From Eledone cirrhosa (lineage: Eukaryota), in contig OZ024746.1 in assembly GCA_964016885.1 (NCBI GenBank), positions 87,668,001-87,732,000 on the forward strand: a stretch of 64,000 nucleotides of DNA, written 5' to 3'. Position numbers and translations under genes: made by a program. The notes below the pieces were generated by a model that worked only from the letters and a program-made list of their open reading frames with translations, did not search any database and was not told the DNA's origin. This document shows positions 884-52,159 of this stretch, in pieces (position 1 is the first letter of the stretch; each line of letters begins with the position of its first letter).

Positions 884-1639
884 GCTGTCAGAAATAATGA
901 TATTTGTTTATTGAAAAAAAACAACAAAGATTTAATATAATAGGTCTGTTTGGGAACAAGTTTTGAATTGACCAATAGAAAAATAGTAAGTGGTAAAGTT
1001 GATAGAATAGTAGTAGTAGCAATTTAATTTAGAGATAGAGGAATGCATACTTCAGTTTTGAATGGAAAGAATACTTTTAATGAAAATATTAATTTGGGGA
1101 TGAAAAGAGGTCAAGCCGGTGAAAGGTACGCGAACATTTGATGTTATTAAAGAATAATGCTAATGTTAAAATAGAAGGAGAATAAAATTTTAGGGTAAAT
1201 GTGTTAGTTAGAAATACCAATCTTATTTAAAACACAAGGAATTTAGATCTATAACAAGAAATTAAATTAATGTAAATGATAGGTATACTGATAGGGGAAA
1301 ATGTATATTGATTCATATAGATGTGATAAATAAGAGTTAGATGTTATTAAAGAATTTTTTTTAAAACGAAGGAAATCAAATGTTTGGGATAAATGTATTA
1401 GTGAGAAATAACAAACGTATATAGACTACAAGGTGTTTAGATTCATAACAGGAAATTAAAATAGTTTATACGTATACTTATAGGTATTCATTTTAGGAAA
1501 AGAGAGCTGTAAAAGGGAAATAAAATTATGAAGTTCTAAGTAGTAAAATACTAATTATAGGTTAACTAAATTAAAAAACTAATTATAATAATTTGAAGAA
1601 TATAAGGTGTATATTAATTAGGTTTATAATATTTGAAAG

Positions 1640-1990
1640 TTCTTCTAATTCTATGATTGCACGATATAATTAATTCTTGTCGCTTATTTAATACGATATC
1701 CTTAGATTTCATTATTTCAAAAAGTTCGTGGGAACATCATCTACACTCATATCTATTATTTTGATAAGGGGTGGCCCTTATGAGCACAGTCCAGATCAGG
1801 TTATAATCGATATTCTTTTTTCTATATTTATTAATTATTTCAGCCAAGGATGTTGTATTAGCTAATGCGGCATTTGTAAAACTATGTTTGAGGGTATTAA
1901 ATCTTACTTTAAATTGATTAGAAGTAGCTCCTATATATGAATAAGTTGAGTCCATAGTGCTAATTTAACAATTATATACTATGTTATTAA
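1640..1990 (-). pseudogene. Penelope GIY-YIG endonuclease fragment
   Basis: VY...YIGATS..FK.R, TSLA, W.VL.RA.PY, then LNKRQEL. Confidence 0.85.
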
Positions 1991-2963
1991 TAAGATAATT
2001 TTCCTTTTAATGGGCAATTTCCTTTGTTTCTATAGTTACAACCATTCGTGAGTATTATATCAGGGGAGTTAGTCAAATTTGGTGTGGAATTTACTCCACT
2101 TCTTATATGTGAAGGAGATGGTGGTTTGTTGCGGTTTATTTTAGTATTATGGTTAGTTTGATGTGTTGGTGGTTTATTCATTGTTTTTTTTACATTTATA
2201 TGCATTGTAGGCACTTATATTTTGTTGTATATTTTTGGTAGTGGAGTAGGAAAATTTGACCGTTGATCTATTTAACATTTGATGGTATTTATGGTTTGGC
2301 GGGAATGTTTTCCCTAGGATAGTAAAAAAAAAATTTAGGGATATTATCTTTAATTTGTAGATTAAATGGAACATTATACCAAGTAACTCGTCTATTACCG
2401 TTTCGATGTTGTTTTTTATATTTATACGATGTATCTGGATGTTTACTAAGGGAGTTAGTATTAGTGAATTTATTATATATCTTTAGTTAGATTAACTGAT
2501 TTAGGTGTTTTAGTCTAATTATTAGGAATCGTGTTAGTAATGTTATTAAACTATATTGGAGTATTAGGATGAATGGTTTTATGAAAGTTATTATATTGTA
2601 TGTGAGAAGAGGTAGAGAAATTAAATTTAAAATTGGTATTTTGGGGTATAGTGTGAGTGGCATTTAGGTGTGTGTTTTTCATTTGGTGTTTGTGGGTAAT
2701 ACTGGGTTGTATGTTTGAAGTATTATTGGTACAAGGTATATAGACTAATTTGTTTTAGTGGCTGCTTCTAGCTAAAGCTGGTTAGATGAAAGGTTAGACA
2801 TTCTGAGTGAGATATTATATGCTAGGTTTCTAAGAATAGATCTAGTGTGATTGGATTGTGAGTGTATGTAATGTAAGTTTTGGTTAGGTTTATGGTAAGG
2901 TTGGTAGATACCCGTAGATATGTCTAAATTATATCAAGGAAATTAACTACTTTACTGGTGTTT

Positions 2964-3584
2964 TCAAATAGTCTTTGAGGAAAGTTCTAATAAGTTTTTT
3001 ATTTTTTCAATTTCTGATAGGCTAAGGTTAGTGGAAAGAAGAAGACAATCATCACGATATAAACCACCCTTAAGGTGGGGAAAATAAGCATTTATGTTAA
3101 ATAGAAGAAGCAGTCCCACAAGATCGGTAATTTGGGCAGAATCACTAGAGCCCATAATAATGTCGAATATATTACAATATGTATTTCTGATCCAGTAGTC
3201 CTTCTGAAATTCCAGTAGTGTTTGTCTAGCGGGCGTGATAATATTAATCTCATCCATAGTTAAGTTTGATCTATTTTGGGCAAATATCAATGGTTTGTTC
3301 AGGATTATGGGTGATATACAGGGATAATAAGCATCTATATCGAATTGTAGAAATGAAGCAAAGGATTTATTTCTAATATTAGTAAACCAGTTAATTACCT
3401 GGGATGTGTTTTCCCAGAGTGGTAAATTAACATGTTTTCTTAATTGTGGGATGACACTGTCTAAAATATGTTTACTAATGATGCCAATGTCAGATTTGGA
3501 AGGGCATATAAGTCTTATAGAAGGATTAGAGTTAAAGTTAGATTTGTGATCTTTCAGGATAATGTGTGGTATTTTCAGTGTCAA
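2964..3584 (-). pseudogene. Penelope-type reverse transcriptase core fragment
   Basis: FDI..YYP, MGS..S...DLVG and GLYRDD motifs in the ORF track. Confidence 0.9.
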
Positions 3585-3617
3585 AGGTTATGTTCTATCT
3601 TCAATATTGAGTTCATT

Positions 3618-3678
<61 letters not shown>

Positions 3679-10433: not shown

Positions 10434-10466
<33 letters not shown>

Positions 10467-10470
<4 letters not shown>

Positions 10471-11315
10471 GTTTACATATATATATATATAAAGTCATAC
10501 ATATATATATGTTTTGCAACGGGTCACTTTGTGGCTCAATGAAGAATTAATAAATTAAATAATCAGAGCTATATATCATAAAACATGTCTATAGAATCAC
10601 CAGATAAAATATATACCGTTTCCTCTCCCAATTAGCATAATTAACCATATAAAAAATCAATTAGACCAAGCTATAAGAATAAAAGCTCCTATGAAGAAAT
10701 CTCCGACAAATAACCGAAAGCAACGCCTTCGCGGCGGTTACGACGGATCATGTACGAATATTTCGACAGCATGTAGGAATCGACCAGATATACAGTCAAC
10801 TAAACAGAATTAGGTGTAAAATAAACTAGAAGAAAAGTGTACATATTTAAATACCTCTACCATGGTTTCATTCGCATTTTAAGACATCCGATAACATTGG
10901 ATATCTAGAGCTTCGAATTCTTCAGGAAGTTAGCTCAAATTTAGACAATTAATTTTCCAAAGTGATCGCGCCAAGAATACATTCAAAAATGGCTAAGAAT
11001 CGTGACGTGTCAGCGGTCAAGTTAGAAAGGATGTGATTAGTTGCTTACGGCTGGTAGACATTTTGCTAGAAAGCGCAGCCCAATACAGCCAAAATTGTAT
11101 CTCAACCTAACGGGAGATTATTACATATAAAGGTTTACATATATATATAAAGTCATAAATATATATGTGTTTTGCAAAGGGTCACTTTGTGGCTCAATGA
11201 AGAATTAATAAATTGTTTTATGATATATAGCTCTGATTATTTAATTTATTAATTCTTCATTGAGCCACAAGCGACTCGTTGCAAAACACACATATATTTA
11301 TATATATATGTAAAC

Positions 11316-11320
<5 letters not shown>
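10467..11320 (-). mobile_element. Non-coding PLE-like insert in (TA)n with direct plus inverted terminal repeats and a hammerhead (family D)
   Basis: 10467-10585 is repeated directly at ~11128-11215 and inverted at ~11215-11320; (TA)n on both sides. Confidence 0.75.
10853..10930 (-). ncRNA. Type I hammerhead ribozyme motif
   Basis: Minus strand: ACTTC-CTGAAGA-ATTCG[hairpin]CGAAT-GAAA-CCATGG-TA-GAGGT; stems I and II pair, palindromic stem III, intact core. Confidence 0.85.
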
Positions 11321-11360
<40 letters not shown>

Positions 11361-11848: not shown

Positions 11849-12216
11849 GTTATTAAACAAATGGAAACTATATTTATAAAACCATATTTATTTCATTATA
11901 CATATTTCGGGGATACCATATTAAAACTATGGCATGCCTTCGTCAGATAAAATACAATATATTATTGTCGCTCACATTTATGGTACGTCAAAATTATTTA
12001 TAAAACTGTTTATATATTGTATTTTGTCTGACGAAGGCATGCCATATTTTTAATATGGTATCCCCGAAATATGTATAATGAAATAAATATGGTTTTATAA
12101 ATATAGTTTCCATTTGTTTAATATCGTATATCTACTCCAAAAATTTGTCGAGTGCTTTATATCAGTTAAAAAATATTTACTTGTTGTAACCCAACAATTT
12201 TAAATAAAACTTTTGC
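11848..12216 (+). mobile_element. Fold-back hammerhead element, family A copy 1
   Basis: Inverted arms ~11851-11960 and ~12014-12123, ~90-bp unpaired 3' tail, (TA)n flanks. Confidence 0.85.
12020..12085 (+). ncRNA. Type I hammerhead motif (mirror copy on minus strand at ~11889-11954)
   Basis: TATTTTGT-CTGACGA-AGGCATGCCATA..TATGGTATCCCC-GAAA-TATGTA-TA-ATGAAATA. Confidence 0.8.
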
Positions 12217-14199
12217 ATATATATATATATTTATATATGTAAATATATCAGGAAAATGGCAAATCTCGGCGCATATAATTATATGAAAAAATCACCAAAT
12301 TTCAATATGTCACACATTCAATATACCATAAATTACCATAGCCTCAGTCAGATGGCTGAAACAGGAGAAAGAATTAATATGTGTGTGTATTTGCGTGTGT
12401 GTATGCATATTTGTGGGAACGTATCTACATGCGTGTGCATGTGTTGTGTGTGTGTATCCCTGTATCCCATCTATTTGCTGTCGGATTATGTCTGTTATTA
12501 TATTCTATGATTGCATGTGAGAAAACCTCTTGCTATTTCTTACAATTGTTTCATCTAGAAAAATGATGTATAATTCATTAATGACACATGTTTTTATTCT
12601 TTATCCCGCTCAAATGCAATGCTATCTGCTGGATAAAAGGTACATTCTACTTGCTGTTGCTCTTGCAGTGATTTATTGCATAAAGGCTTTTGTGGAAAAG
12701 GTTAAACGTTTGTTGAACCACGTTTATTCAAGATTGTGATAGAATCATACGGTTTAAATATTTTAAGCGTCAAATTGGGGTGCGTGGGGAGGTTTTAATA
12801 TAAATTGGTTTATAATTGAGTAGTGTGTGGCAAGATGTTTGTAGAGATGGCATGGATGGATATAATGTAATCTAGAATGCTATTGTTTAAAAATATTTAT
12901 TCTCTTTTATTTTATTAATTTTAGTTTAATTTAAAAAAAGAATTAAACATGTGTTGTGACTGTGAAAACGTCCAGTTTTCATTCTTTTATTTAAATTGGC
13001 TTGTGTGGCTTACGTGATAGTACCAGGTGTGGGTTGGGGGTGTTAATTGTTTTGACACCTTACTTGGCGGGAAAGTTTAAGAAAAAGGTGAGATTACTGT
13101 GTGTGACGGAAATAATTAGGATTAGCACCCTTGTCATCAGCCACATCCACCTGGTAATTACATGTAATCATTTCCTTCCTGTATCTCAAGAAGCGAAAAC
13201 AGGTATGCACATGTTGTGACGCAGGTGGGTTATTTATTTATTTATTTGATTGAATTGTTCGGTTAATTATGTTATCCTTGTGTTATGCCTTTACCATTAA
13301 TATTTATTATATCATATTGTTTGGATTTTATATTAATCTGGCTTCAATTAAGTTTTAAACTCCTGTTTTTAAGTTTTTTCATTTTGATGTATTCAAATGC
13401 TGTTTGAGATTAAAAGATTTATATGTTGCTGTGTATGAGTTTCTCCATTTAGATTTTTTTTTACTATTTATTAATGCATGCTGTTTAGATTTTACTGTAA
13501 TCTTGTGCTATTTGAATTAATCCTTTGTTTCGTTATTCTGTTCCAGTATTTATTTTGTTCATAGTGTTGGCTATTTATTTGCATTATTTAGTGTGATATA
13601 ATTAATTTAGTTTTAGTTTTAATTACGTTTTAGTATTAAGAAAGTATGCAAACTAAAATAACATGACTGCCGGAACATAAATGATATAGACCCTTCAGCA
13701 ATAATGGTATCAAGACTAGAAATATAGACAAAACATTGTGACCATTTTCAACAACAGTCTGACGACAACGCATTAGCTTAATGACATGTATATGGCTTTA
13801 ACATTTACTTAACATGTATGATGTAATAAAGTGAAGTTGAATATGGGAAAACATCACCGGAAAAGTATAGAAGGCTCAGTCGGGAAAGCATTGGCACGTT
13901 GGAACGATAAGGAAAGGAGAAAAGTAAAACATGTGAAGACTAAGATTACGAAAAAAGTGGTGATTAAAGTTACATAACTTGAGAGCTAATACAAAATCTC
14001 AGATGCACATAAAACTCATCCACTCACACCTGGCTACCTAGTATTCAAATTGACTATGATTTTATATACATATATACATATATAAATATAAATACATATA
14101 TAAATACATGCATACATACACAAATACATACACACATGCATACATACATACACATATATATATATATATGAATGGAAACTATATTTATAAAACCATATT

Positions 14200-14260
14200 T
14201 ATTCTATTATATATATTTCAAGGGTACCAAAATGTTGGTATGCTCTCATCAGATAAAATA
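14200..14260 (-). ncRNA. Type I hammerhead motif
   Basis: TATTTTAT-CTGATGA-GAGCATACCA..TGGTACCCTT-GAAA-TATATA-TA-ATAGAATA. Confidence 0.82.
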
Positions 14261-14407
14261 GAATGTTTGTTTTATAAATATTGACATATCCAGGAATGAG
14301 ACATTAACGATTGAATTTTCACGCTATCCAGGTGAAACTATCTTGGTGAAACTTGAACCGTTAAGATCTCATTCCTGGATATGTCAATATTTATAAAACA
14401 AACTTTG

Positions 14408-14468
14408 TATTTTATCTGATGAGTGCGTATCAAAGTTTTGGTACCCTAGAAATATATATAATAGAATA
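14408..14468 (+). ncRNA. Type I hammerhead motif
   Basis: TATTTTAT-CTGATGA-GTGCGTATCA..TGGTACCCTA-GAAA-TATATA-TA-ATAGAATA. Confidence 0.78.
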
Positions 14469-14601
14469 AATATGGTTTTATAAATATATTTTCCATTTAT
14501 TAATATCATTGATATTATACTCCAGAAAAGCTGTCGAGTGCTTCGAATATGTTATTAATATATATATTTGTTGAATTACCAACAAACTAAATATCCCTTT
14601 G

Positions 14602-14680
<79 letters not shown>

Positions 14681-14720
14681 TTCTCTCTCTCTCGCTCTCT
14701 CACTCTCTCTCTCTCTCTCC

Positions 14721-14766
<46 letters not shown>

Positions 14767-14818
14767 ATATATATATACATAATTATACATGAATTATACA
14801 TATATACATATATATACA

Positions 14819-14878
14819 TGAATTATACATAATGTAAACAATTCCTAGGGAAACGTAAATCTTTACTTTTAGAGTGGG

Positions 14879-14922
<44 letters not shown>

Positions 14923-14982
14923 CCCACTCTAAAAGTAAAGATTTACGTTTCCCTAGGAATTGTTTACATTATGTATAATTCA
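14819..14982. repeat. Perfect ~62-bp inverted repeat centred on a (TA)n tract
   Basis: 14819-14880 is the reverse complement of 14921-14982. Confidence 0.95.
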
Positions 14983-15465: not shown

Positions 15466-16446
15466 CTAGCAGAATGGCCCGGCGTTGCTCGGGATTTGCT
15501 ATAGGGTTCTTATATATTTAATATATATTTATCCTTATCGAACCTCGTGAAATAAATACGTTTGTTTATTTTTTGTTATTGTGTACGCAAAAATATCTGT
15601 CCATAAATATATAATTATATATATATATTAAAATAACAGACTAAAGTTTAAGCAAAGAATCACTGCTTTCACGCTTAACGGATATTTTACCTAAAAGCAG
15701 TATGCAGTACACTACGACTAATTGATGTAATCTTTGGCCTTGTTTGTTTATATTTTGTTTTTGTGTGTGCAAAAATATCTGTACATGAATATCTATTTTA
15801 AAATAACATATTAATGTTTAAGCAAAGAGCGGTGGATTGGCAGTATCGGTAGAGGGTCGGACGCCATGCTTTCCAGCATAGTTACGTCACTTTACGATCT
15901 GAGTTCAAATCCCGCCGAGGCTGACTTGGCCTTTCATCCTTACGGGGTCGATAAAATAAAGTACCAGTAATGAACTGGGTAATTGCTGGCCTTGTGCCTA
16001 AAGTAGAAACAATTAATGTTTAAGCAAATAATCGCTGCTTTCAACCTTAACGGGATCTTCTTAAACTAAAAAAATCAATCTGGAAAACAGGAAGACGATA
16101 CTTTGGTTCGTGAAGACATTCCCTGGCATAAGAATATACACACAGACACACACTGATCGCGTCATAATGACGTAATACAGACAGTCAGGCATACAGACAG
16201 ATATTATGAAGGCGCGACGTCATATCTATGTATATATCTAAAAAGAGAAAGACTAAGAGAAAGCGAAAGAGATCGCTAAATCGCCTAATGCGGTCCCTAG
16301 GGCATTGACAATTTGACATCTGTTTTGCTCAAAAGAATTCCGGGGTCATACGGGTTACATGTATAAAGTTTGAAAAAAACCGGTTGGGTACTTCTCGAGT
16401 TTTAGAGAAACAGACACACAGACATCCTCTGTTTTATATATATAGA
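15466..16446 (-). mobile_element. Non-autonomous Helitron with nested SINE
   Basis: Minus-strand 5' TCTATATATATAAAA at 16446; 3' hairpin cccgagcaacgccggg plus CTAG at 15466, in an AT site. Confidence 0.85.
15829..16013 (+). mobile_element. Full-length tRNA-derived SINE
   Basis: A-box-like tggcagtatcgg, B-box gagttcaaatcc, central cctttcatccttacggggtcgataaaataaagtaccag; TSD attaatgtttaagcaaa. Confidence 0.92.
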
Positions 16447-28833: not shown

Positions 28834-31800
28834 AGCTAAATGTATAAATATCTCTCTTGCTGAACGTATTAAAACCACAACGTTTAATTCAAAAACCAAA
28901 TAATGAAATATTACGTGTTATTGACAAAATAGGGGATGGATATTTACGACGGATAAAAACCCCAACATTTTGGCTCATCAATGCCTATTTATATGCCTTA
29001 GCAACGACAGTGAAGCATTATGTTTGTGATAGCAGAGATATTAACAAGAAGAGAACACTACCAAAAATACTATCATATATAACTAAAATAGAAAAAGAGA
29101 TTGCTGACCTACGAAAAACCATAGAATATGTGACAATGCTCCTTACATGCAAATAAACACAAACAAATCTCACTCCTCACCAACAAAGAGTGCAAAATAA
29201 AATAGAGACGATGTTTGGTAACAGTAGAACCAGAACTCTTCAATATAAACTGATCACCATCAAACAAGAATTGAGAGCTGTTAGCGAAAAACGCCGATAC
29301 CTGAAGAAGGTAGATGAGAGAAAAGTGCTTAATAAAAGATTCAGACGAAACCAAAGAGTCTAGAGAGATATGAAGAACAAAATAATAAGTGTTACCGAGG
29401 CCCCATCCCAGAAAGACATAGATTCCTTTTGGAGCAAAATATGGGGTGAAAAGAAGAATTTCAACCAAGATGCAGTGTGGCTAAGAGAAATCCGAAAGAA
29501 CTATTGCTCCTACACTACAACAAAATCATACAAAATAAGTGAGGGTACTCTTGAGACTGTGACAGGAAAACTCCAAGATAAGAAAACACCAGAAAGAGAC
29601 ATGATTGTCGGCTACTGGTACCAACAAGTTCTTAAGGGAGATACACTTATACCAGAATGGTTGACATTAACACAAAAATTACTGGTCCCCAAGAACAAAG
29701 ACACCCATTTGGCAAAAAATACCGACCCATTGCATGCCAGAACCTGATGTATAAGATGTATACAGTCTGACTGAACCTATTCCTCCAAGATCACTGTGAA
29801 AATAATAACATCATCACAGATGAAGAGGCACCTGGAAAGAAAGGGGTTTGGGGATGTGCTGAACAACTCCTAATCAACAAAACTGCGATGTCGGAGGTGC
29901 GACAACTTAGGAGGAATATGGCTACAGTCTGGCTGGACTACAGGAAAGCTTTCAATTCTGTTCACCACTCTTGGATGATAGAGGCTTTCCAACTTGCTAA
30001 AGTCCTAGACATTATTGTCAGAGCCATAGAGAGGCTGTTTTCTTCTTGGACTACTATCCTAAGGTTAAAAACAGAGAGGGAGGACTCTATTTTCACTGAT
30101 AAAATAAAATATTGCAGGGTTATATTTCAGGGGAACAGTCTCTCTGTGATATTATTCAACTTGTTATTAAGCCCATTGTCTTTTCTGCTCAAGAAATGTC
30201 AGGGATACATCATTGGCTCACAGGAAGAGAAATACGAACCTAACCCATAATTTCTTTGTGGACGATCTGAAACTCTATGCCAAGAACATGGATGTGATGA
30301 AGAAACATCTTGACCTGGTTACAACGTTCTCAGTGGATATAGGAATGGAGTTTGGCCAAGATAAATGCTCATACATGATTGTAAAGCGGGGAAAAACAAC
30401 AACCCAATCTAGCAACATTGTCATCAATCGCCTAACTGTTTCACCGATATCTGATGAGGACTGCTACAGATACCTGGGGATAGATGAGAACATATCCTAT
30501 AATGGTATATGTAATAAAGAACGCGTAACCACGGAATACTACACCAGATTAAGATCTGGTCATCCGAACTCTCTGCGCAAAACAAAACAGTGGCTCACAA
30601 TGTGTTTGCTGTGCCTATCCTAACACCAACGTTTGGAATACTCAATTTGACGATAGACGAAATCCGAGCAGTTGATGTTGGAACTCGAACAATACTAAAC
30701 AACACCGGAAACTTCCACATCAATAGTGATATAGACCGCCTTTACTTGAAACGTAAGCAAGGAGGCAGCGGCCTAACATCAGTCCAGACAACATTTGAAT
30801 GTCACATCATATCTCTCCGACAACATCTACGAACCTCGAAGCGTAGGAGCCCGTTTCTTGAGCAAGTATATCTGCATGAAACAGATAAGATCATGAGAGT
30901 TGGGAGGAAATCTTCGAGATATATTCCCTGTGTGATAATCAAAAACTCACACCCAGGGAAGTCGCTCAGCAGTATCGCAGTGAATCCATGGATGGAAAAC
31001 TGCATGTTTATCAGCAAAAAATTATGCATGGATATGTTGCCAGGAAGCTCCAGAGTGAGAGTAATATAGATAAGGAGAATCGTCAATATTGTACCAACAA
31101 CCGCTATATTGGCTCCTACTTTGAAGGATACGCTTTTGCAATCCAAGAACAGTAGATTAACACGAAATACCTGATTCACAAAAGAGATAGGGATGCAGGC
31201 GAAACATCTAGATGTGATAACAAGTGCAGACTCTGCAGAACTAACATCGAGGATATCACCCATGTCATCAGCAGCTGTCCAAATATGTCATCGCGGTACT
31301 ATCTACCTATGGGGCATGATATAGTAGCCAAAACACTGTACACTGCAGTTCGTAAAAAAGATAGCCCCGATAATAAACACATTAAAAGCTACAGTAATGT
31401 GGAAGGCATCCATGCACATAATATTAAAAAGTACTGGCGGAATGTCCCAGTCAAAACCCCAATACAATGCAGGCATAGCAGACCAGATATTATGATATGG
31501 GACAGGAAGAAGAAAGCATGCACAGTGGTGGAAATTAGCTGCCCAGCAGATACCAATATAATATCAAATATTAGCGAAAAGGAGAATATTTATGCAGAAC
31601 TGATGAGAAATCTGCAGATACTCCAACCTGATTACAGCTTCAGATTTATTCCTGTGATTATTGGGGCACTGGGGTATGTTAGTAACTGCCTCAATACAAA
31701 TCTTGAGAAGCTAGGCTTCACAGGAACAGAAAGAACACGACGACTAATTAGGAAATTATAAGTACAATCCAATGGAACAGTAAAAATATGTAAAACATTC

Positions 31801-34688: not shown

Positions 34689-34697
34689 TAGCTACGT

Positions 34698-34876
34698 TTA
34701 CTCTTAACGGGATCTTATATATCTGGTATAGATTTATCCTTATCGAGCCCTCTTTGGATTTTAGTCTTCAAATTTATTAGTATATAGTAATAATAATAAA
34801 TTTGAAGACTAAAATCCAAAGAGGGCTCGATAAGTATAAATATATATCAGATATATAAGATCCCGTTAAGAGTGAA
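34698..34876. repeat. ~80-bp-arm hairpin made of a dispersed repeat end
   Basis: ctcttaacgggatc...cttcaaatttatta / taataaatttgaag...gatcccgttaagag; single arms also at ~37170-37243 and ~43329-43375 next to (TA)n. Confidence 0.9.
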
Positions 34877-34933: not shown

Positions 34934-35500
34934 GTATAAATGTAATAGAATGAAACGAAATTTCATTTCTCACAATTAGTAGGGCACTTACTTAAATGTA
35001 AGTATGTATGTATGTATACGTACATACATATATATATATACAGATGTACAGCAGTATGTATATATATACATACATGCACACATATATATATGTACGTATC
35101 GGTTTACCGAACATTTATTATAATGCTCGGTTTGTTTGTAAACAAACAAACAGCCCGAATTACGCCGTACAGTGTTTAGGCAACCACGTCACCTTTATGT
35201 TCAACACTGAGACAGGAACGATGTACTACTTTCAAGCTTATTAGCTATCGTCAGCATCGTATACCTTCCTACCAGATGGTTGAACGTCTGAAAGTATATA
35301 CTTTCCTTATGCTTATTAACGGCTGAGCAGCCTAATTTGCACATCGAGTGAGTTCAGTCGGCCGGACACACCGAAAACGATAAATGGAATTCGTTTCATT
35401 CTATTCCATTTATAGTTTTCGGTGTGCCCGGCCGACTGAACTCACTCGATATGCAAATTAGGCTGCTCAGCCAATAATATGCATAAGGAAAGTATATATA
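34934..35500 (-). mobile_element. Non-coding PLE-like insert, family B, with hammerhead and terminal fold-back
   Basis: Inverted arms ~35296-35390 and ~35403-35498; the element start recurs inverted at ~35390-35412; related pieces at 39533-39670 and 50488-50745. Confidence 0.78.
35218..35260 (-). ncRNA. Minimal type I hammerhead motif
   Basis: ACGATG-CTGACGA-TAGC.TAATAA.GCTT-GAAA-GTAG-TA-CATCGT; perfect 6-bp stem I. Confidence 0.78.
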
Positions 35501-37237: not shown

Positions 37238-37300
<63 letters not shown>

Positions 37301-37536
37301 TGTAGGAACACATATTCTATTATTACTATCCTCCTCTATGTTGAGAAAAATATGTGGTCGTTCTGACTGCTGCTAGTTGTAGCGGTAGCCGACTGACTTG
37401 CCTGCCCCTGCCTCTATCTTTACTCGGCCCTTGAAAAAATTGATTCCACTTCATTTACTCTAATCTCAGGAACAATTTTGAATAGCGCCAGTTTGTAATT
37501 TAAGTTCGAGAATTTTATATTCTTCGAATGTAAAGA

Positions 37537-37620
37537 ACCTTCTGACGAGAATCTTTCTTTGCAACGAAGGCCGTATGGACTCCGTTTATTTTTGAGATTC
37601 GAAACCGATTCGGTAAAGGT
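37537..37620 (+). ncRNA. Type I hammerhead motif (family E) in a ~390-bp insert between (TA)n tracts
   Basis: ACCTT-CTGACGA-GAATCT[loop]AGATTC-GAAA-CCGATTCGG-TA-AAGGT; all three stems pair. Confidence 0.88.
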
Positions 37621-37687
37621 AACTATACTAGGTAATGTTAATTTTTCTTAATTTATTTTGAAACTTATTCCTTATTTGCTAAACCTT

Positions 37688-37908
<221 letters not shown>

Positions 37909-37917
37909 GATATATAT

Positions 37918-38053
37918 AAATGATATTAATGAGTGGAAACTATCTTTATGAAACCATATTTATTTTATTATATATATGTCAAGGTTACCAACAGTTTGGT
38001 ACGCTTCATCAGATGAAATACAAAAGTTGTTTTATAAATAGTGACATATCCAG
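37918..38053 (-). mobile_element. Family A single arm (copy 3), hammerhead degraded
   Basis: Aligns to the left arms of other family A copies; GAAA mutated. Confidence 0.75.
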
Positions 38054-39740: not shown

Positions 39741-39755
39741 GATATATATATATAG

Positions 39756-40890
39756 ATCCATAATTAAGGCCGTGGTCAAGAGTGTCTCGGACAGGATCTC
39801 CAACCTGTCCACCAATGAGGAAATCATCGATACCAACGCAGAGTATTACAACGCATCTCTAAATAAAGCACCGCATGGCCGAAATACATCTTATATTCGG
39901 AGGCGCCATGATGGGGATAGCCCATCGTACCCCCTGACCTAGGAAGAGGGGAAACCACTAAACCCCATGAACCCGACACCAACATATTAGCGAAAAGGAC
40001 GAGTACCCCTAGCCATGGGAGGAAACCCAGTACGAGTAGCGGTCTCAGAGGTGATACTAACCACCCCGGGTCTGGCGCCCCCAACCGCAACACAGGAAGC
40101 TGGACGGATGGAGGATCATCCCATTGTAGTACTCCCAGCGTGTGCAACAACCACCCCACGGGTACGGGCCTGGAAGCTACCATAACACATAGCGCCCAAA
40201 GGGGAAGCAACAATGCGGGAACCACTAGCAACCCAACAACTCCCCAATAGCCCACAGCCCGCTCAACCCACTCACATACAAATAGACGTAGAAAAATCAG
40301 GTGGTAAAACCTACCGTACACATCGGACCTAAAGATCACTCTTCAACAGGCACACTGTGCACCTCATGTATTCTACCAGCACATAGCTGGCATCAATAGG
40401 GTAGACTTAGAAACTACACACAACCAGAAGCTGGCAATATAAGCACCCAACAAAGCCATGTGGAGGGAAGGAAAGGTTGACCCGGTACGGACCCTGTGAA
40501 TCCAAACAGATCCAGGGACCTACCACCGGGCCCAGGTGAAGACCACCCTATAATACGCAACGGGAACCTCACATTGGGCACTAGGGGATCGACCAGCTCC
40601 TGCAGATGCCCCACATTATGCCGCTTTACTAATGAATGCCTAAGGAAGAATTTAATATACGGATAAAGATTAAAACAAAACATTTCTGAGCACCTTTACA
40701 TAGGAGCCACATCAGCGAGCTTCAAAGACCGATGGTATAACCATCGCCATTCATTTAATATGAAGGACAACAGGAAAAGTATGGCTCTTTCCAAACTGAT
40801 CTGGATGTTCACACTAGACAGGACCCCGTATTCTCTGGCCTGGTCCAAAATTAGGAAATTACCACCTTATAGAGGGAGATCTGGCATCCT
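39756..40890 (+). mobile_element. Second Penelope-like element, 3' part (thumb to GIY-YIG), decayed
   Basis: Manual translation: [15 protein letters not shown]...YYNASLNKA; FNRHTVHLMYST; NECLRKNLIY; LYIGATSASFKDRWYNHRHSF...ALSKLIW...WSKIRKLPPY. Confidence 0.88.
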
Positions 40891-40917
40891 TGCTGGATGA
40901 TATTTAATTTGATATAT

Positions 40918-41445
<528 letters not shown>

Positions 41446-42331: not shown

Positions 42332-43311
42332 ATATTAAATAAATGGAAACTATATTTATAAAACCATATTTATTCTATTATATATATTTCAAGGGTACCA
42401 AAGCTTTAGTACGCTTCCATCAGTTAAAATAGAAAGTATGTTTTATAAATTTTTACATAGCCGAGGAACATATCTTAACGGTTGAAGTTTTCCTTGGATA
42501 GTGGAATTAGACAGATATTTCAAAATTGTTAAGATGAGTATGCAAATGAATATGTAAATGATGTTGCGGTATAGGTTTGAAAAAACGTTATTTCAGACGC
42601 TATAGAGAATTTAGATATGTGTTTGTATGAGAAGGAAAGGAAGTAAAAGAAAAAAAAAGAAAAGAAGATCTCGTATTTACGTTCATTTTGGGGAAAACAT
42701 TTGAATATTTACCTATATTATGTATATACTTATATGGATAATTATGTATGTAATTATTTATCTTTTTACAATATTATAGTAGGTTATATGCATAGATATC
42801 TATAGATATTAATACTTGCATATGTATTAGTATTAAAAAGATATAGATAATTTACAATTATTAGTTGTTTATTATTCTAATATGAGATACAAGGGATGTT
42901 GATTTTGTGTTTTATGTAAATAAATATGTGATTCAAATTCTCCATAGCGTCTAAAATAACGTTTTTTCAAACCTATACCTCAATATCATTTACATATTCA
43001 TTTGCATACTCATCTTAACAATTTTGAAATATCTGTCTAACTCCACTATCCAAGGAAAACTTCAACCGTTAAGGTATGTTCCTTGGTTATGTCAAAATTT
43101 ATAAAACACACTTTGTATTTTATCTGATGAAAGCGTACCAAAGCTTTGGTTCCCTTGAAATATATATAATAGAATAAATATGATTTCATAATTATAGTTT
43201 CCATTTATTTGATATTGAATATTATACTCCAGGAAAACTGTCGAGTGTTCTGAATCAGTTATAAACATTTATATTTGTTGAATTACTGACAAATTGAATA
43301 TCCCTTCTGCT
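42327..43311 (+). mobile_element. Fold-back hammerhead element, family A copy 5 (longest)
   Basis: Arms ~42330-42612 and ~42935-43213; hammerhead 43116-43176 (+) intact, mirror 42371-42431 has CTGATGG; (TA)n flanks. Confidence 0.9.
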
Positions 43312-43744: not shown

Positions 43745-44048
43745 TAATAATTGTTTCTACTTTTGGTACAAGGCCAGTAATTACCCAGTGCATTACTGGT
43801 ACTTTATTTTATCGACCCCGTAAGGATGAAAGGCAATGTTAACCTCGGCGGGATTTGAACTCTGAATGGCAAGGGGCGTAACTCTATGCGTCAATTGATA
43901 ATAATGACACTGCAGCATTTTAACGTCTATTTTACTGACTACACCCAGCAGAAACTTTGCCTTTCATCCTTACGGGGTCGATAAAATAAAGTAGCAGTAA
44001 TGCACTGGGATAATTGCTGGCATTGTGCCAAAAGTAGAAACAAATATT
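43745..44048. mobile_element. Two SINE fragments in inverted orientation (43745-43894 minus; 43954-44048 plus)
   Basis: Family core on opposite strands ~60 bp apart. Confidence 0.88.
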
Positions 44049-44617
44049 ACTTTGAAGTATAATTAATTATCTATGTAGATAGGACTGAAAAACTGAGCTG
44101 AAGTTTTTATTAAAATATAGTAAGAATGTACCATGGAGATGTATTTTTTACATTCTTAAATTTGATCCATGCATTATCTTATATAAAATGTTCTAATGCT
44201 GAAGTTTTATGTAAATTTGTCAGTATATGACATATCTGCTTTATGCTTAAATTTCTTATAGCAGCTTTTTTTATTTTTTTTTATTTTCATTATACCAGCT
44301 TGTTTTTAATTGTTTAATGTTGCTGATACATAATTATATTTATATGATCAGGTTTTTCATGTGCTTCTTGCTTTCCTCTCTTATATCAATGTTAATATCT
44401 ATTATTTTTGCTTTTTTTCCCATGTACGGTATCACCAGAATGTTCTTTGACAAAGTTATATGCGTTCTAACTGTTGATGTATACTCCGATGTATCGGATG
44501 AAACGATCGTTAGTAAAGAAATGTTATTAAAAACTCATTGATTGTTATTTATGAAGTATTGCGGCTCTGCAATATATTTGTTATTTTACATCGAGCTCAT
44601 CTCATACTTGTAATTGG

Positions 44618-44658
<41 letters not shown>

Positions 44659-44682
44659 CTGTGTATATATATATATATATAT

Positions 44683-45247
<565 letters not shown>

Positions 45248-50496: not shown

Positions 50497-51520
50497 ACGT
50501 ACATACATATATGTATACAGACGCACAGTAGTATGTATATATATACATACATGCACACATATATATATATGTACGTATGGGTTTACAGAACATTTATTAT
50601 AATGTATGTTCGTCTTGTTTGTAAAGAAACAAACAGCCCGAATTGCGCCTGCATACATATTGTATGTACCTATACATACATACTTACATTTAAGTATCAC
50701 CCGTACTAAGAGTGAGAAATGAAATTTCGTGTCATTCTTTTCCATGTATATATATATATACACACACGCATGCTTATATACATACATATAGGAGTATAAA
50801 TATACAAAATTCAATTCATAGCTACATATAAGCTAGTGGTGGGTGAATCTATAGGCACTGTGGTGATGGTGGGGGAGAGGATGTGTGGATGGTGGTGGCG
50901 GCGGCTGTAATGTAGTTAGAATGAGTCAAGTGTATCTAGTTTAAAATTAAAGAATTGAATAATTAAAGAAGTGATTACGGTGAAGTAAATGTGAATATAT
51001 ATTTATAGAAGCTGTGATGGGTGAATAAGTGCGCGGTAGCAGTGTGCTGTTGATGTTTTGTAAATATATATGAAACATATAAAATATATGAATATACATT
51101 ATGGAAATATTTCTACGATGAAGGTTATAAATATTAAGGATTTTTATATGATGATGATTTTGTGCTGGTGGTGTGGTGTGGGTGTTAGGCACGTATAAGA
51201 TATGAGCTAAGGCGTATAAATGAAGTAAGCAAAAAATGAAAGCATCCTGTAAAAATAAAAAAAAATAAAAAATTAAATGTTGAAGAATTTGAAGATGACA
51301 GTAATGACAAAATGACATATTGGAATAAAAGAAGTTTTAAATTCTTCAGGTGTCTGCTAGTGAAAATTTAGTTCTTGTCTGATGACCCGACAAACAGGCG
51401 AAATTCCAGAAAACAATACTCATAATTTAGCCTAACACACACACATACACACACATATATACATATAGGAAAACGTATGAAATCCTTCGTACAGTTAGGT
51501 ACTTTTAAAAAAGTTAATAG

Positions 51521-51846
51521 AATGACTTCTCGTGGAGTTCTAAACAATTTAATTCAATTCATAATATTATAAATTTACTATTTGGTTTTGTAAATCTAGC
51601 AAGTTCTTTATTAACTTCGGTTGGAGATTTTAAAAGATTCCTGGTTAACATTCCCGGGAACTTTCTCGCATTCATCGGTGGCGATTGTCCAACTGATCTC
51701 AAACGTTCTACAGGAAAGTTAACCGGAATCTTTAAAAATCTTCCCACCGAAGTTAAAAGAACTTACTGGATCTAAAAAAACAAATTGTAAAATTATAATA
51801 TTATGAAATTAAATTAAATTGTTTACAACTACAAGTGAAGTCATTT
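51521..51846. repeat. Diverged ~135-bp-arm inverted repeat
   Basis: aatgactt...aagattcctggttaac / gttaaccggaatctt...aagtcatt. Confidence 0.85.
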
Positions 51847-52159
51847 TTTCCCTTTTTTTCCTTTTGGGGTGTGCGCTTGTGCGTGTGTGCTAAGGCTAAG
51901 GTCACCACTGATAGAGAAAGATAGAGAACTACAGACAAAAATATGAACTTTTGTCTCTAAATATGTATGTAAAAACAAATCCCCCCCCCCATATTCTTCT
52001 TATTAATATGCAATGTAGTTGCATTATACACTTCCGTCGATGAAAAAGCGTATAAGCTGAAACCGGTACACGTGGAAATTCCTATTTTGTAAATAAATGT
52101 TTTGATGTTATTCTGAGAGAAAATCCCTTTACAGTTTTCTACTTTTTTTCTCTTTTTCA

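Follow-up and report, generated by a model that had tools for sequence, protein, structure and literature searches.

A Penelope-type insertion of an abundant non-coding repeat with a non-canonical hammerhead motif in Eledone cirrhosa

Penelope-like elements (PLEs) integrate in recognizable groups of copies. A truncated copy in front of the main copy forms a pseudo-LTR (pLTR), with an inverted truncated copy adjoining (PMC8557442), and the arrangement of two direct copies and one inverted copy can surround even a passenger gene that was mobilised in trans (PMC3846280). The purified protein of an anole PLE nicks AT-rich DNA on both strands and extends from the nicks, with reverse transcription beginning at fixed internal sites. 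Mutants of its ribozyme insert as well as the wild type, cleavage not being needed, and no reads ended at the ribozyme cut in the experiments described (PMC11167929). PLEs of the Hydra clade target (TA)n and carry hammerhead ribozymes (PMC8557442). Hammerheads are also carried by the metazoan non-LTR retrozymes, which a 2026 preprint derives from PLE pLTRs while describing their mobilisation mechanism as open (bioRxiv 10.64898/2026.07.22.740005).

The locus described here lies in a 64,000-nucleotide stretch of the Eledone cirrhosa genome (the window; all positions are those of this stretch). Between the left and right parts of a (TA)n target (10440-10466 and 11320-11352, neither assigned a strand), the plus strand reads, in order, segment A (10467-10556), 29 nt (10557-10585), a unique body to 11124, an (AT)2 spacer of 4 nt that forms a head-to-tail junction (11125-11128, likewise unstranded), a direct copy of segment A and an inverted copy. 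Positions 10467-11124 make up a 658-nt non-coding unit on the minus strand, with its 3' end at 10467, its 5' boundary near 11124 and a GC content of 34%. With the hammerhead strand taken as sense, segment A is the 3'-terminal part of the unit (minus strand) and ends in TAAACCTTT followed by (AT)n; its 86-nt direct copy (11129-11214, minus strand) is a pLTR; and the 106-nt inverted copy (11214-11319, plus strand) is a 5'-truncated copy of the 3' end. Both short copies, one direct and one inverted, lie upstream of the main copy in sense, all three end at one common 3' point located 391 nt downstream of the predicted hammerhead cut, and both outer borders of the insert are 3' ends against (TA)n. 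The direct copy departs from 10467-10556 by three substitutions and one 4-nt TA-length gap, with a direct-repeat period of 658-662 nt. The inverted copy departs from 10467-10585 by five substitutions, a 1-nt gap and a 12-nt gap, although over the inner 57 nt the two are identical. It joins the direct copy head-to-head with a 1-nt overlap at 11214. A sequence-only reading of the same DNA had reported that the first ~90 bp recur directly ~660 bp on, that an inverted ~105-bp copy follows at once and that the ~660-nt unit has no ORF. All three statements held, the longest stop-free frame of the unit being 72 amino acids. The unit body has no second copy within the 64-kb window, and two metagenome scans and one viral scan gave 0 matches; a match of the insert flank to 14676-14809 was dismissed as microsatellite only. 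A target-site duplication is not distinguishable from the flanking (TA)n.

By analogy, the anatomy of the insert is the published structure of a PLE insertion. As in the EN+ insertions described in PMC8557442 and PMC3846280, a pLTR lies upstream in sense with an inverted truncated copy adjoining it, copy order and orientation agree, the 3' end is fixed, the target is AT-rich, here (TA)n, and a type I hammerhead lies on the sense strand. The insert differs from these examples in having no ORF between the repeats and a hammerhead outside them, and the one-sided 30-40-nt tail that is a PLE feature was not seen at its borders. Short non-coding PLE derivatives with pLTRs and head-to-tail insertions are represented by the non-autonomous Chlamys elements such as MRC1, which differ from the unit in being green-algal, in having no canonical hammerhead and in having a known parent (PMC8557442). 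With the metazoan non-LTR retrozymes (PMC7229834; bioRxiv 10.64898/2026.07.22.740005) the unit shares its non-coding character, a GC content below 45%, a type I hammerhead and head-to-tail redundancy, and its length falls within their range of 51-972 bp (bioRxiv 10.64898/2026.07.22.740005). However, membership of that group calls for two or more hammerhead-bearing units in tandem, and the 'active' class of the preprint needs two ribozymes, whereas the insert amounts to 1.13 units with one ribozyme, its repeats carrying none. The inverted copy has no counterpart in the non-LTR retrozyme description of PMC7229834, where the word 'inverted' has 0 occurrences in the text available. The plant LTR retrozymes, with a type III hammerhead inside both terminal repeats, are a still different structure, since the motif described here is of type I and outside the repeats. 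The label 'retrozyme-like', which the sequence-only reading had attached to the unit, is apt in so far as the unit is apparently RNA-copied, non-coding and ribozyme-bearing and the insert exceeds one unit; the direct plus inverted ends are standard for PLEs and need no circle.

The minus strand of the unit carries a motif at 10853-10930 that, judged from its sequence, is a type I hammerhead predicted to cut its own RNA. The general pattern of CUGANGA, GAAA and UH with stems I to III in type I order is complete: CUGAAGA lies at 10925-10919, GAAA at 10869-10866 and a GUA triplet before the cut, stem I has 5 bp and a predicted 7-bp extension, and stem III consists of 2 bp and a palindromic loop (ACCA-TGGT). 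The motif is far beyond chance, as its descriptor found 0 matches in 3000 dinucleotide shuffles of the unit, strict or relaxed, and 0 in 40 shuffles of the window. The perfect minus-strand core that had been claimed is borne out, and we place the predicted cut between 10858 and 10857, where it had been expected (~10857/10858). A long stem II hairpin is present as well, but the previously named hairpin, at 10906-10882, accounts for no more than the outer part of a 49-nt stem II (10870-10918, minus strand) composed of 5 bp, a 7x7 internal loop, the 8-bp hairpin and a 9-nt loop. The description of the hammerhead as 'intact' suits its core and not its folding as a monomer, in which stem III has 2 bp and the active fold lies 2.9 kcal/mol (110 nt) or 4.9 kcal/mol (348 nt) above the free fold. 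Hammerheads with a palindromic stem III are described as working in dimers (PMC4209133), and for the present ribozyme activity probably depends on dimer formation or on assistance from a protein; it may serve to trim tandem transcripts.

No hammerhead model was among the 141 Rfam matches in the window, and there were 0 local matches at the unit. This blank weighs little, because Rfam also missed, in one closely scanned stretch, a second family of hammerheads in the window with a shorter stem II of 26-31 nt. This family has nine copies (11877-11956, 12018-12097, 14188-14260, 14406-14480, 37951-38022, 40948-41020, 41134-41207, 42359-42431 and 43114-43186), six of them in three head-to-head palindromic inserts, so that mirror arrangements are routine in this window. 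Other palindromic structures are a perfect palindrome of 164 nt with a (TA)n array in its middle (14819-14982) and inserts of 180-610 nt at 34697-34876, 35295-35498, 43745-44049, 44621-45232 and 51507-51858. Also present are a dispersed 190-nt repeat at 15829-16020 and roughly ten further sites, which is probably a SINE and has no hammerhead core, and a decayed non-LTR reverse transcriptase region on the plus strand (28848-31761; Pfam RVT_1 E 5.6e-8 at 29771-30247).

A second long-stem element occupies 37299-37691 (plus strand, 393 nt) between (TA)n arrays. Its type I hammerhead (core at 37542, predicted cut 37615/37616) has a 4-bp stem III and a 52-nt stem II in which 7 bp are followed by a 7x7 loop and then a hairpin, a build of stem II that it has in common with the unit. 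This element also ends in TAAACCTT before (TA)n, a string found at three places in the window, two from the insert of the unit and one from this element; the shuffle expectation of 0.06 is too low, as shuffling destroys the (TA)n arrays. Judged from alignment, sequence homology between the two is weak: the comparison is not significant 5' of the core (225 of 1000 shuffles local, 34 of 1000 global), gives no homology in stem II (328 of 1000), and yields a weak signal 3' of the cut (2 of 1000 local, 8 of 1000 global) in a region picked post hoc. By length alone a long stem II is not new, because the hammerheads of the spike-moss elements PLE-X1_sMoe and PLE-X1_sTam have stem II domains of ~50 nt, close to the 49 nt of the unit and marked as deviating from the canonical structure (PMC8557442, file S2). 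Those elements differ from the unit in being rDNA-targeting and coding, and no 7x7 loop is listed for them in that file. Ribozymes of this kind may be undercounted, since a stem II of 49-52 nt goes unrecognized by Rfam in this window and is longer than the 7-17-nt spacer used in one published core search.

Variation among copies touches the long stem. In the core-closing helix the pair 10916/10872 is U-A in the present copy and C-G in most others; in run X11 the other letter occurs in 156 of 165 reads at 10916 and in 356 of 374 at 10872, counts that were made per position and are unphased across single reads. One pair of that helix is thereby seen to covary. Position 10870 is changed toward the usual C in 228 of 374 X11 reads (61%), its partner 10918 being absent from the 40 variant rows shown of 303, and none of the hammerhead core positions appears among those 40 rows. 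Not every copy seems to keep the motif whole, as one nucleotide of stem I is lacking in 49 of 161 X11 reads. Starting at the first base after the cut, an imperfect rod of 256 nt is predicted (10602-10857, minus strand), which would compete with stem I. The folding of the 260 nt after the cut gave z = -4.0 in sense (0 of 150 shuffles) and +0.4 in antisense, a z of -4.0 being matched by 5 of 38 background folds; 16 of the 90 rod pairs are G-U, and of the family variants, 23 in number, 6 preserve a pair, 6 disrupt one and 11 fall at unpaired positions. The rod is a prediction. A fold of the whole unit as a circle (z = -3.4) was dismissed as a TA-hairpin effect, as z falls to -0.8 without the TA-rich end.

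The unit belongs to a high-copy non-coding family in two organisms. Our survey drew on reads and contigs of 4 runs among 13 listed, and reads of organisms A and B map along the length of the unit. In run X1 (organism A) the summed contig depth, which points to abundance and is not a copy number, reaches 3,000-370,000 per bin over 10525-11133, compared with 5.5-17.5 for the listed long pieces, and is several-fold higher at 10583-10698 than at 10757-11133. For organism B, 24 of 30 bins of the insert are covered, and for organism D (run X7) 7 of 30, mostly low-complexity, plus one 166-nt piece; organisms C, E, F and G had small shares, which lie outside these counts. The present copy differs from most of the X1 depth at 20 shown positions in 10520-11124 and hence lies at least 3% from the family majority. 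Across the inverted part, X11 depth is 3.9 and 0 at 11221-11249 and 0 beyond, although this region is blurred by a restriction site at 11211 and by reads that fit two places. Depth in X11 is biased by library cuts at AATT, and apparent molecule ends in this run were rejected as RNA ends since they fall at AATT sites. Joints and loose ends at 10474-10512, which come from low-complexity reads, were set aside, and the 'runs on unlike' share, zero in X1 and X5, was left unused, being swamped by low-complexity records. One X1 contig (depth 249) has a joint at 10786-10857 that skips 70 nt and ends at the first base after the predicted cut. In the parts of the literature on octopus hammerheads, non-autonomous PLEs and long stem II variants that were available, we found no description of this family, which the octopus repeat library of PMC13282606 may name otherwise.

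Hydra-clade PLEs such as Hydra-1_Obim and Penelope-13_HM resemble the unit in their (TA)n target, a hammerhead near the 3' end and a short palindrome-like stem III (PMC8557442, files S1 and S2). The stem III of Hydra-1_Obim (ACCA-A-TGGT) is nearly identical to that of the unit, and Penelope-13_HM, like the insert, bears a truncated copy in inverted orientation, located at its 5' end (PMC8557442). In contrast, their stem II measures 10-24 nt rather than 49, and their hammerhead lies closer to the end (PMC8557442). Two decayed Hydra-type remnants lie in the window, at approximate positions. One (1620-3620, minus strand) is 5'-truncated, with a reverse transcriptase (RT) region followed by a GIY-YIG-like region, its 5' end abutting a (TA)n array, and scans found no hammerhead core downstream of it; the other (39750-40890, plus strand) is followed directly by a palindromic hammerhead insert at 40914-41244. 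The best relatives of both have the RW-R/K, DKT and CxCx5C motifs and the C-terminal nuclease of the Hydra clade, and their nearest named protein relative is from Argonauta hians, which points to an octopod host. The unit has no sequence match to these remnants and no ORF for RT plus GIY-YIG: a tblastn search with 120 Hydra-type proteins gave a best E of 0.014, in antisense. Three words of 10-11 letters from the unit had 0 matches in the portion of the PMC8557442 supplement that was available. No sequence link was found between the unit and any autonomous PLE, and a Hydra-clade PLE as its helper is our guess.

We propose that a PLE-like enzyme copied an RNA unit of ~660 nt into a (TA)n tract, the unit being a likely passenger of that enzyme. 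An endonuclease would nick both (TA)n strands, and each nick might prime reverse transcription at one fixed 3' start. The first cDNA, of ~750 nt, would span the whole unit and 86 nt of the next; this overshoot could reflect copying of a tandem precursor or of a circle, a jump between templates, or a further insertion at the end of the first one. The second cDNA would stop after 106 nt, and the two could then join head-to-head over one shared base. The likeliest helper for this process would be a Hydra-clade PLE that targets (TA)n and bears a hammerhead.

Whether the insert stems from a defined unit depends largely on what lies past 11124 in other copies. Record 6 of run X1 stops at 11123. Record 7 of the same run (10986-11149, 23 differences) and record 16 of run X5 (organism B; 11040-11141, 9 differences in 101 letters) continue to align beyond 11124 until each record ends, crossing the junction by 25 and 17 letters, respectively, where the rule applied asks for 31 letters, and a plain (TA)n flank would align past 11124 with 5 mismatches. 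These alignments suggest a tandem junction in other copies; and since both copies turn TA-rich at the same place, a defined 5' end is favoured. We therefore lean, with moderate confidence, toward a defined non-autonomous unit of ~660 nt moved by a PLE enzyme over a cut-off 3' UTR. Under the latter explanation, a long coding PLE with a 3' UTR above 658 nt would have left three of its 3' ends here in one complex insertion, each truncated on the 5' side, and the 660-nt length would be accidental. PLE copies are indeed mostly 5'-truncated and form such tandem and inverted groups (PMC8557442), X1 depth rises toward the 3' end in the way expected of 5' truncation, and the window holds many short hammerhead stumps. 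The octopus element Naiad_Ovul has ~0.95 kb after its stop codon, as estimated by eye, enough for the whole 658-nt unit, which lacks an ORF, to be 3' UTR, yet the end of Naiad_Ovul, again by eye in the portion available, has no likeness to the unit. The explanation also sits poorly with the two divergent copies, one in another organism, that are TA-rich or junction-like just past 11124, and with six new Hydra consensuses in which 9-83 nt separate the hammerhead and its 20-nt flank from the element end, compared with 391 nt after the cut in the unit. We regard it as somewhat improbable; if it applied, nothing but an odd ribozyme would set the locus apart from ordinary PLE insertions. A DNA element (MITE-like) with 120-nt terminal inverted repeats and a chance hammerhead-like motif, or a local duplication, would account for outer ends that are mutual inverted repeats inside (TA)n. 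Reads are nearly absent over the inverted part, so that, subject to the blurring there, the inversion looks locus-specific, and the motif exceeds chance by far and has a double change in stem II, which makes this origin highly improbable.

A special case of the favoured non-autonomous unit, which we scored separately, is a circular-RNA retrozyme: dimers elsewhere would be cut twice, the 660-nt monomer ligated, and the insert copied 1.13 times round the circle. An insert longer than one unit with a clean junction would agree with this, the palindromic stem III suits dimer cleavage, and a circle model has been proposed for PLE tandems (both PMC4209133); circles of 170-400 nt have been shown for mussel, coral and axolotl repeats (PMC7229834). 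The locus alone cannot release a circle, because its redundancy excludes the ribozyme. Only one ribozyme is present here, and no dimer joint was seen among the 15 joints shown of 40, although short contigs and restriction cuts would hide one. The loss of the whole-circle fold signal (z from -3.4 to -0.8) without the TA-rich end, the dispensable cleavage and the lack of reads ending at the cut in the anole PLE (PMC11167929) and the cleavage in vitro of 1 of 9 frog dimers (bioRxiv 10.64898/2026.07.22.740005) also speak against the circle, and we consider it unlikely. Aligning other genomic copies for circular permutation would not separate the models, since all three copies in the insert end 391 nt downstream of the cut. 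In a fuller version, the family would be a retrozyme present in many copies in an octopod, its circular RNA would measure 660 nt, its hammerhead would represent a new long-armed subtype (7x7 stem II loop, two families), a 256-nt rod would switch the ribozyme off after cleavage, and the inserts would bear the PLE signature; in our estimate this is slightly less likely still.

As a PLE-type insertion the locus is real and well preserved, and it belongs to an abundant non-coding family with a non-canonical hammerhead. PLE anatomy and non-LTR retrozymes with their circles are known; what is unusual is the 49-nt stem II with its 7x7 loop, a build that recurs in the second element, together with the predicted 256-nt rod. 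So far, PLE-driven mobilisation of animal retrozymes has been argued from co-occurrence and pLTR similarity. If the fuller retrozyme version were true, the tandem-plus-inverted signature of PLEs on retrozyme inserts would be direct structural proof of such mobilisation. A unit-length ORF-less family with this PLE-only signature would tie retrozymes directly to PLE enzymes, and its junctions would record PLE reverse transcription beyond one unit.
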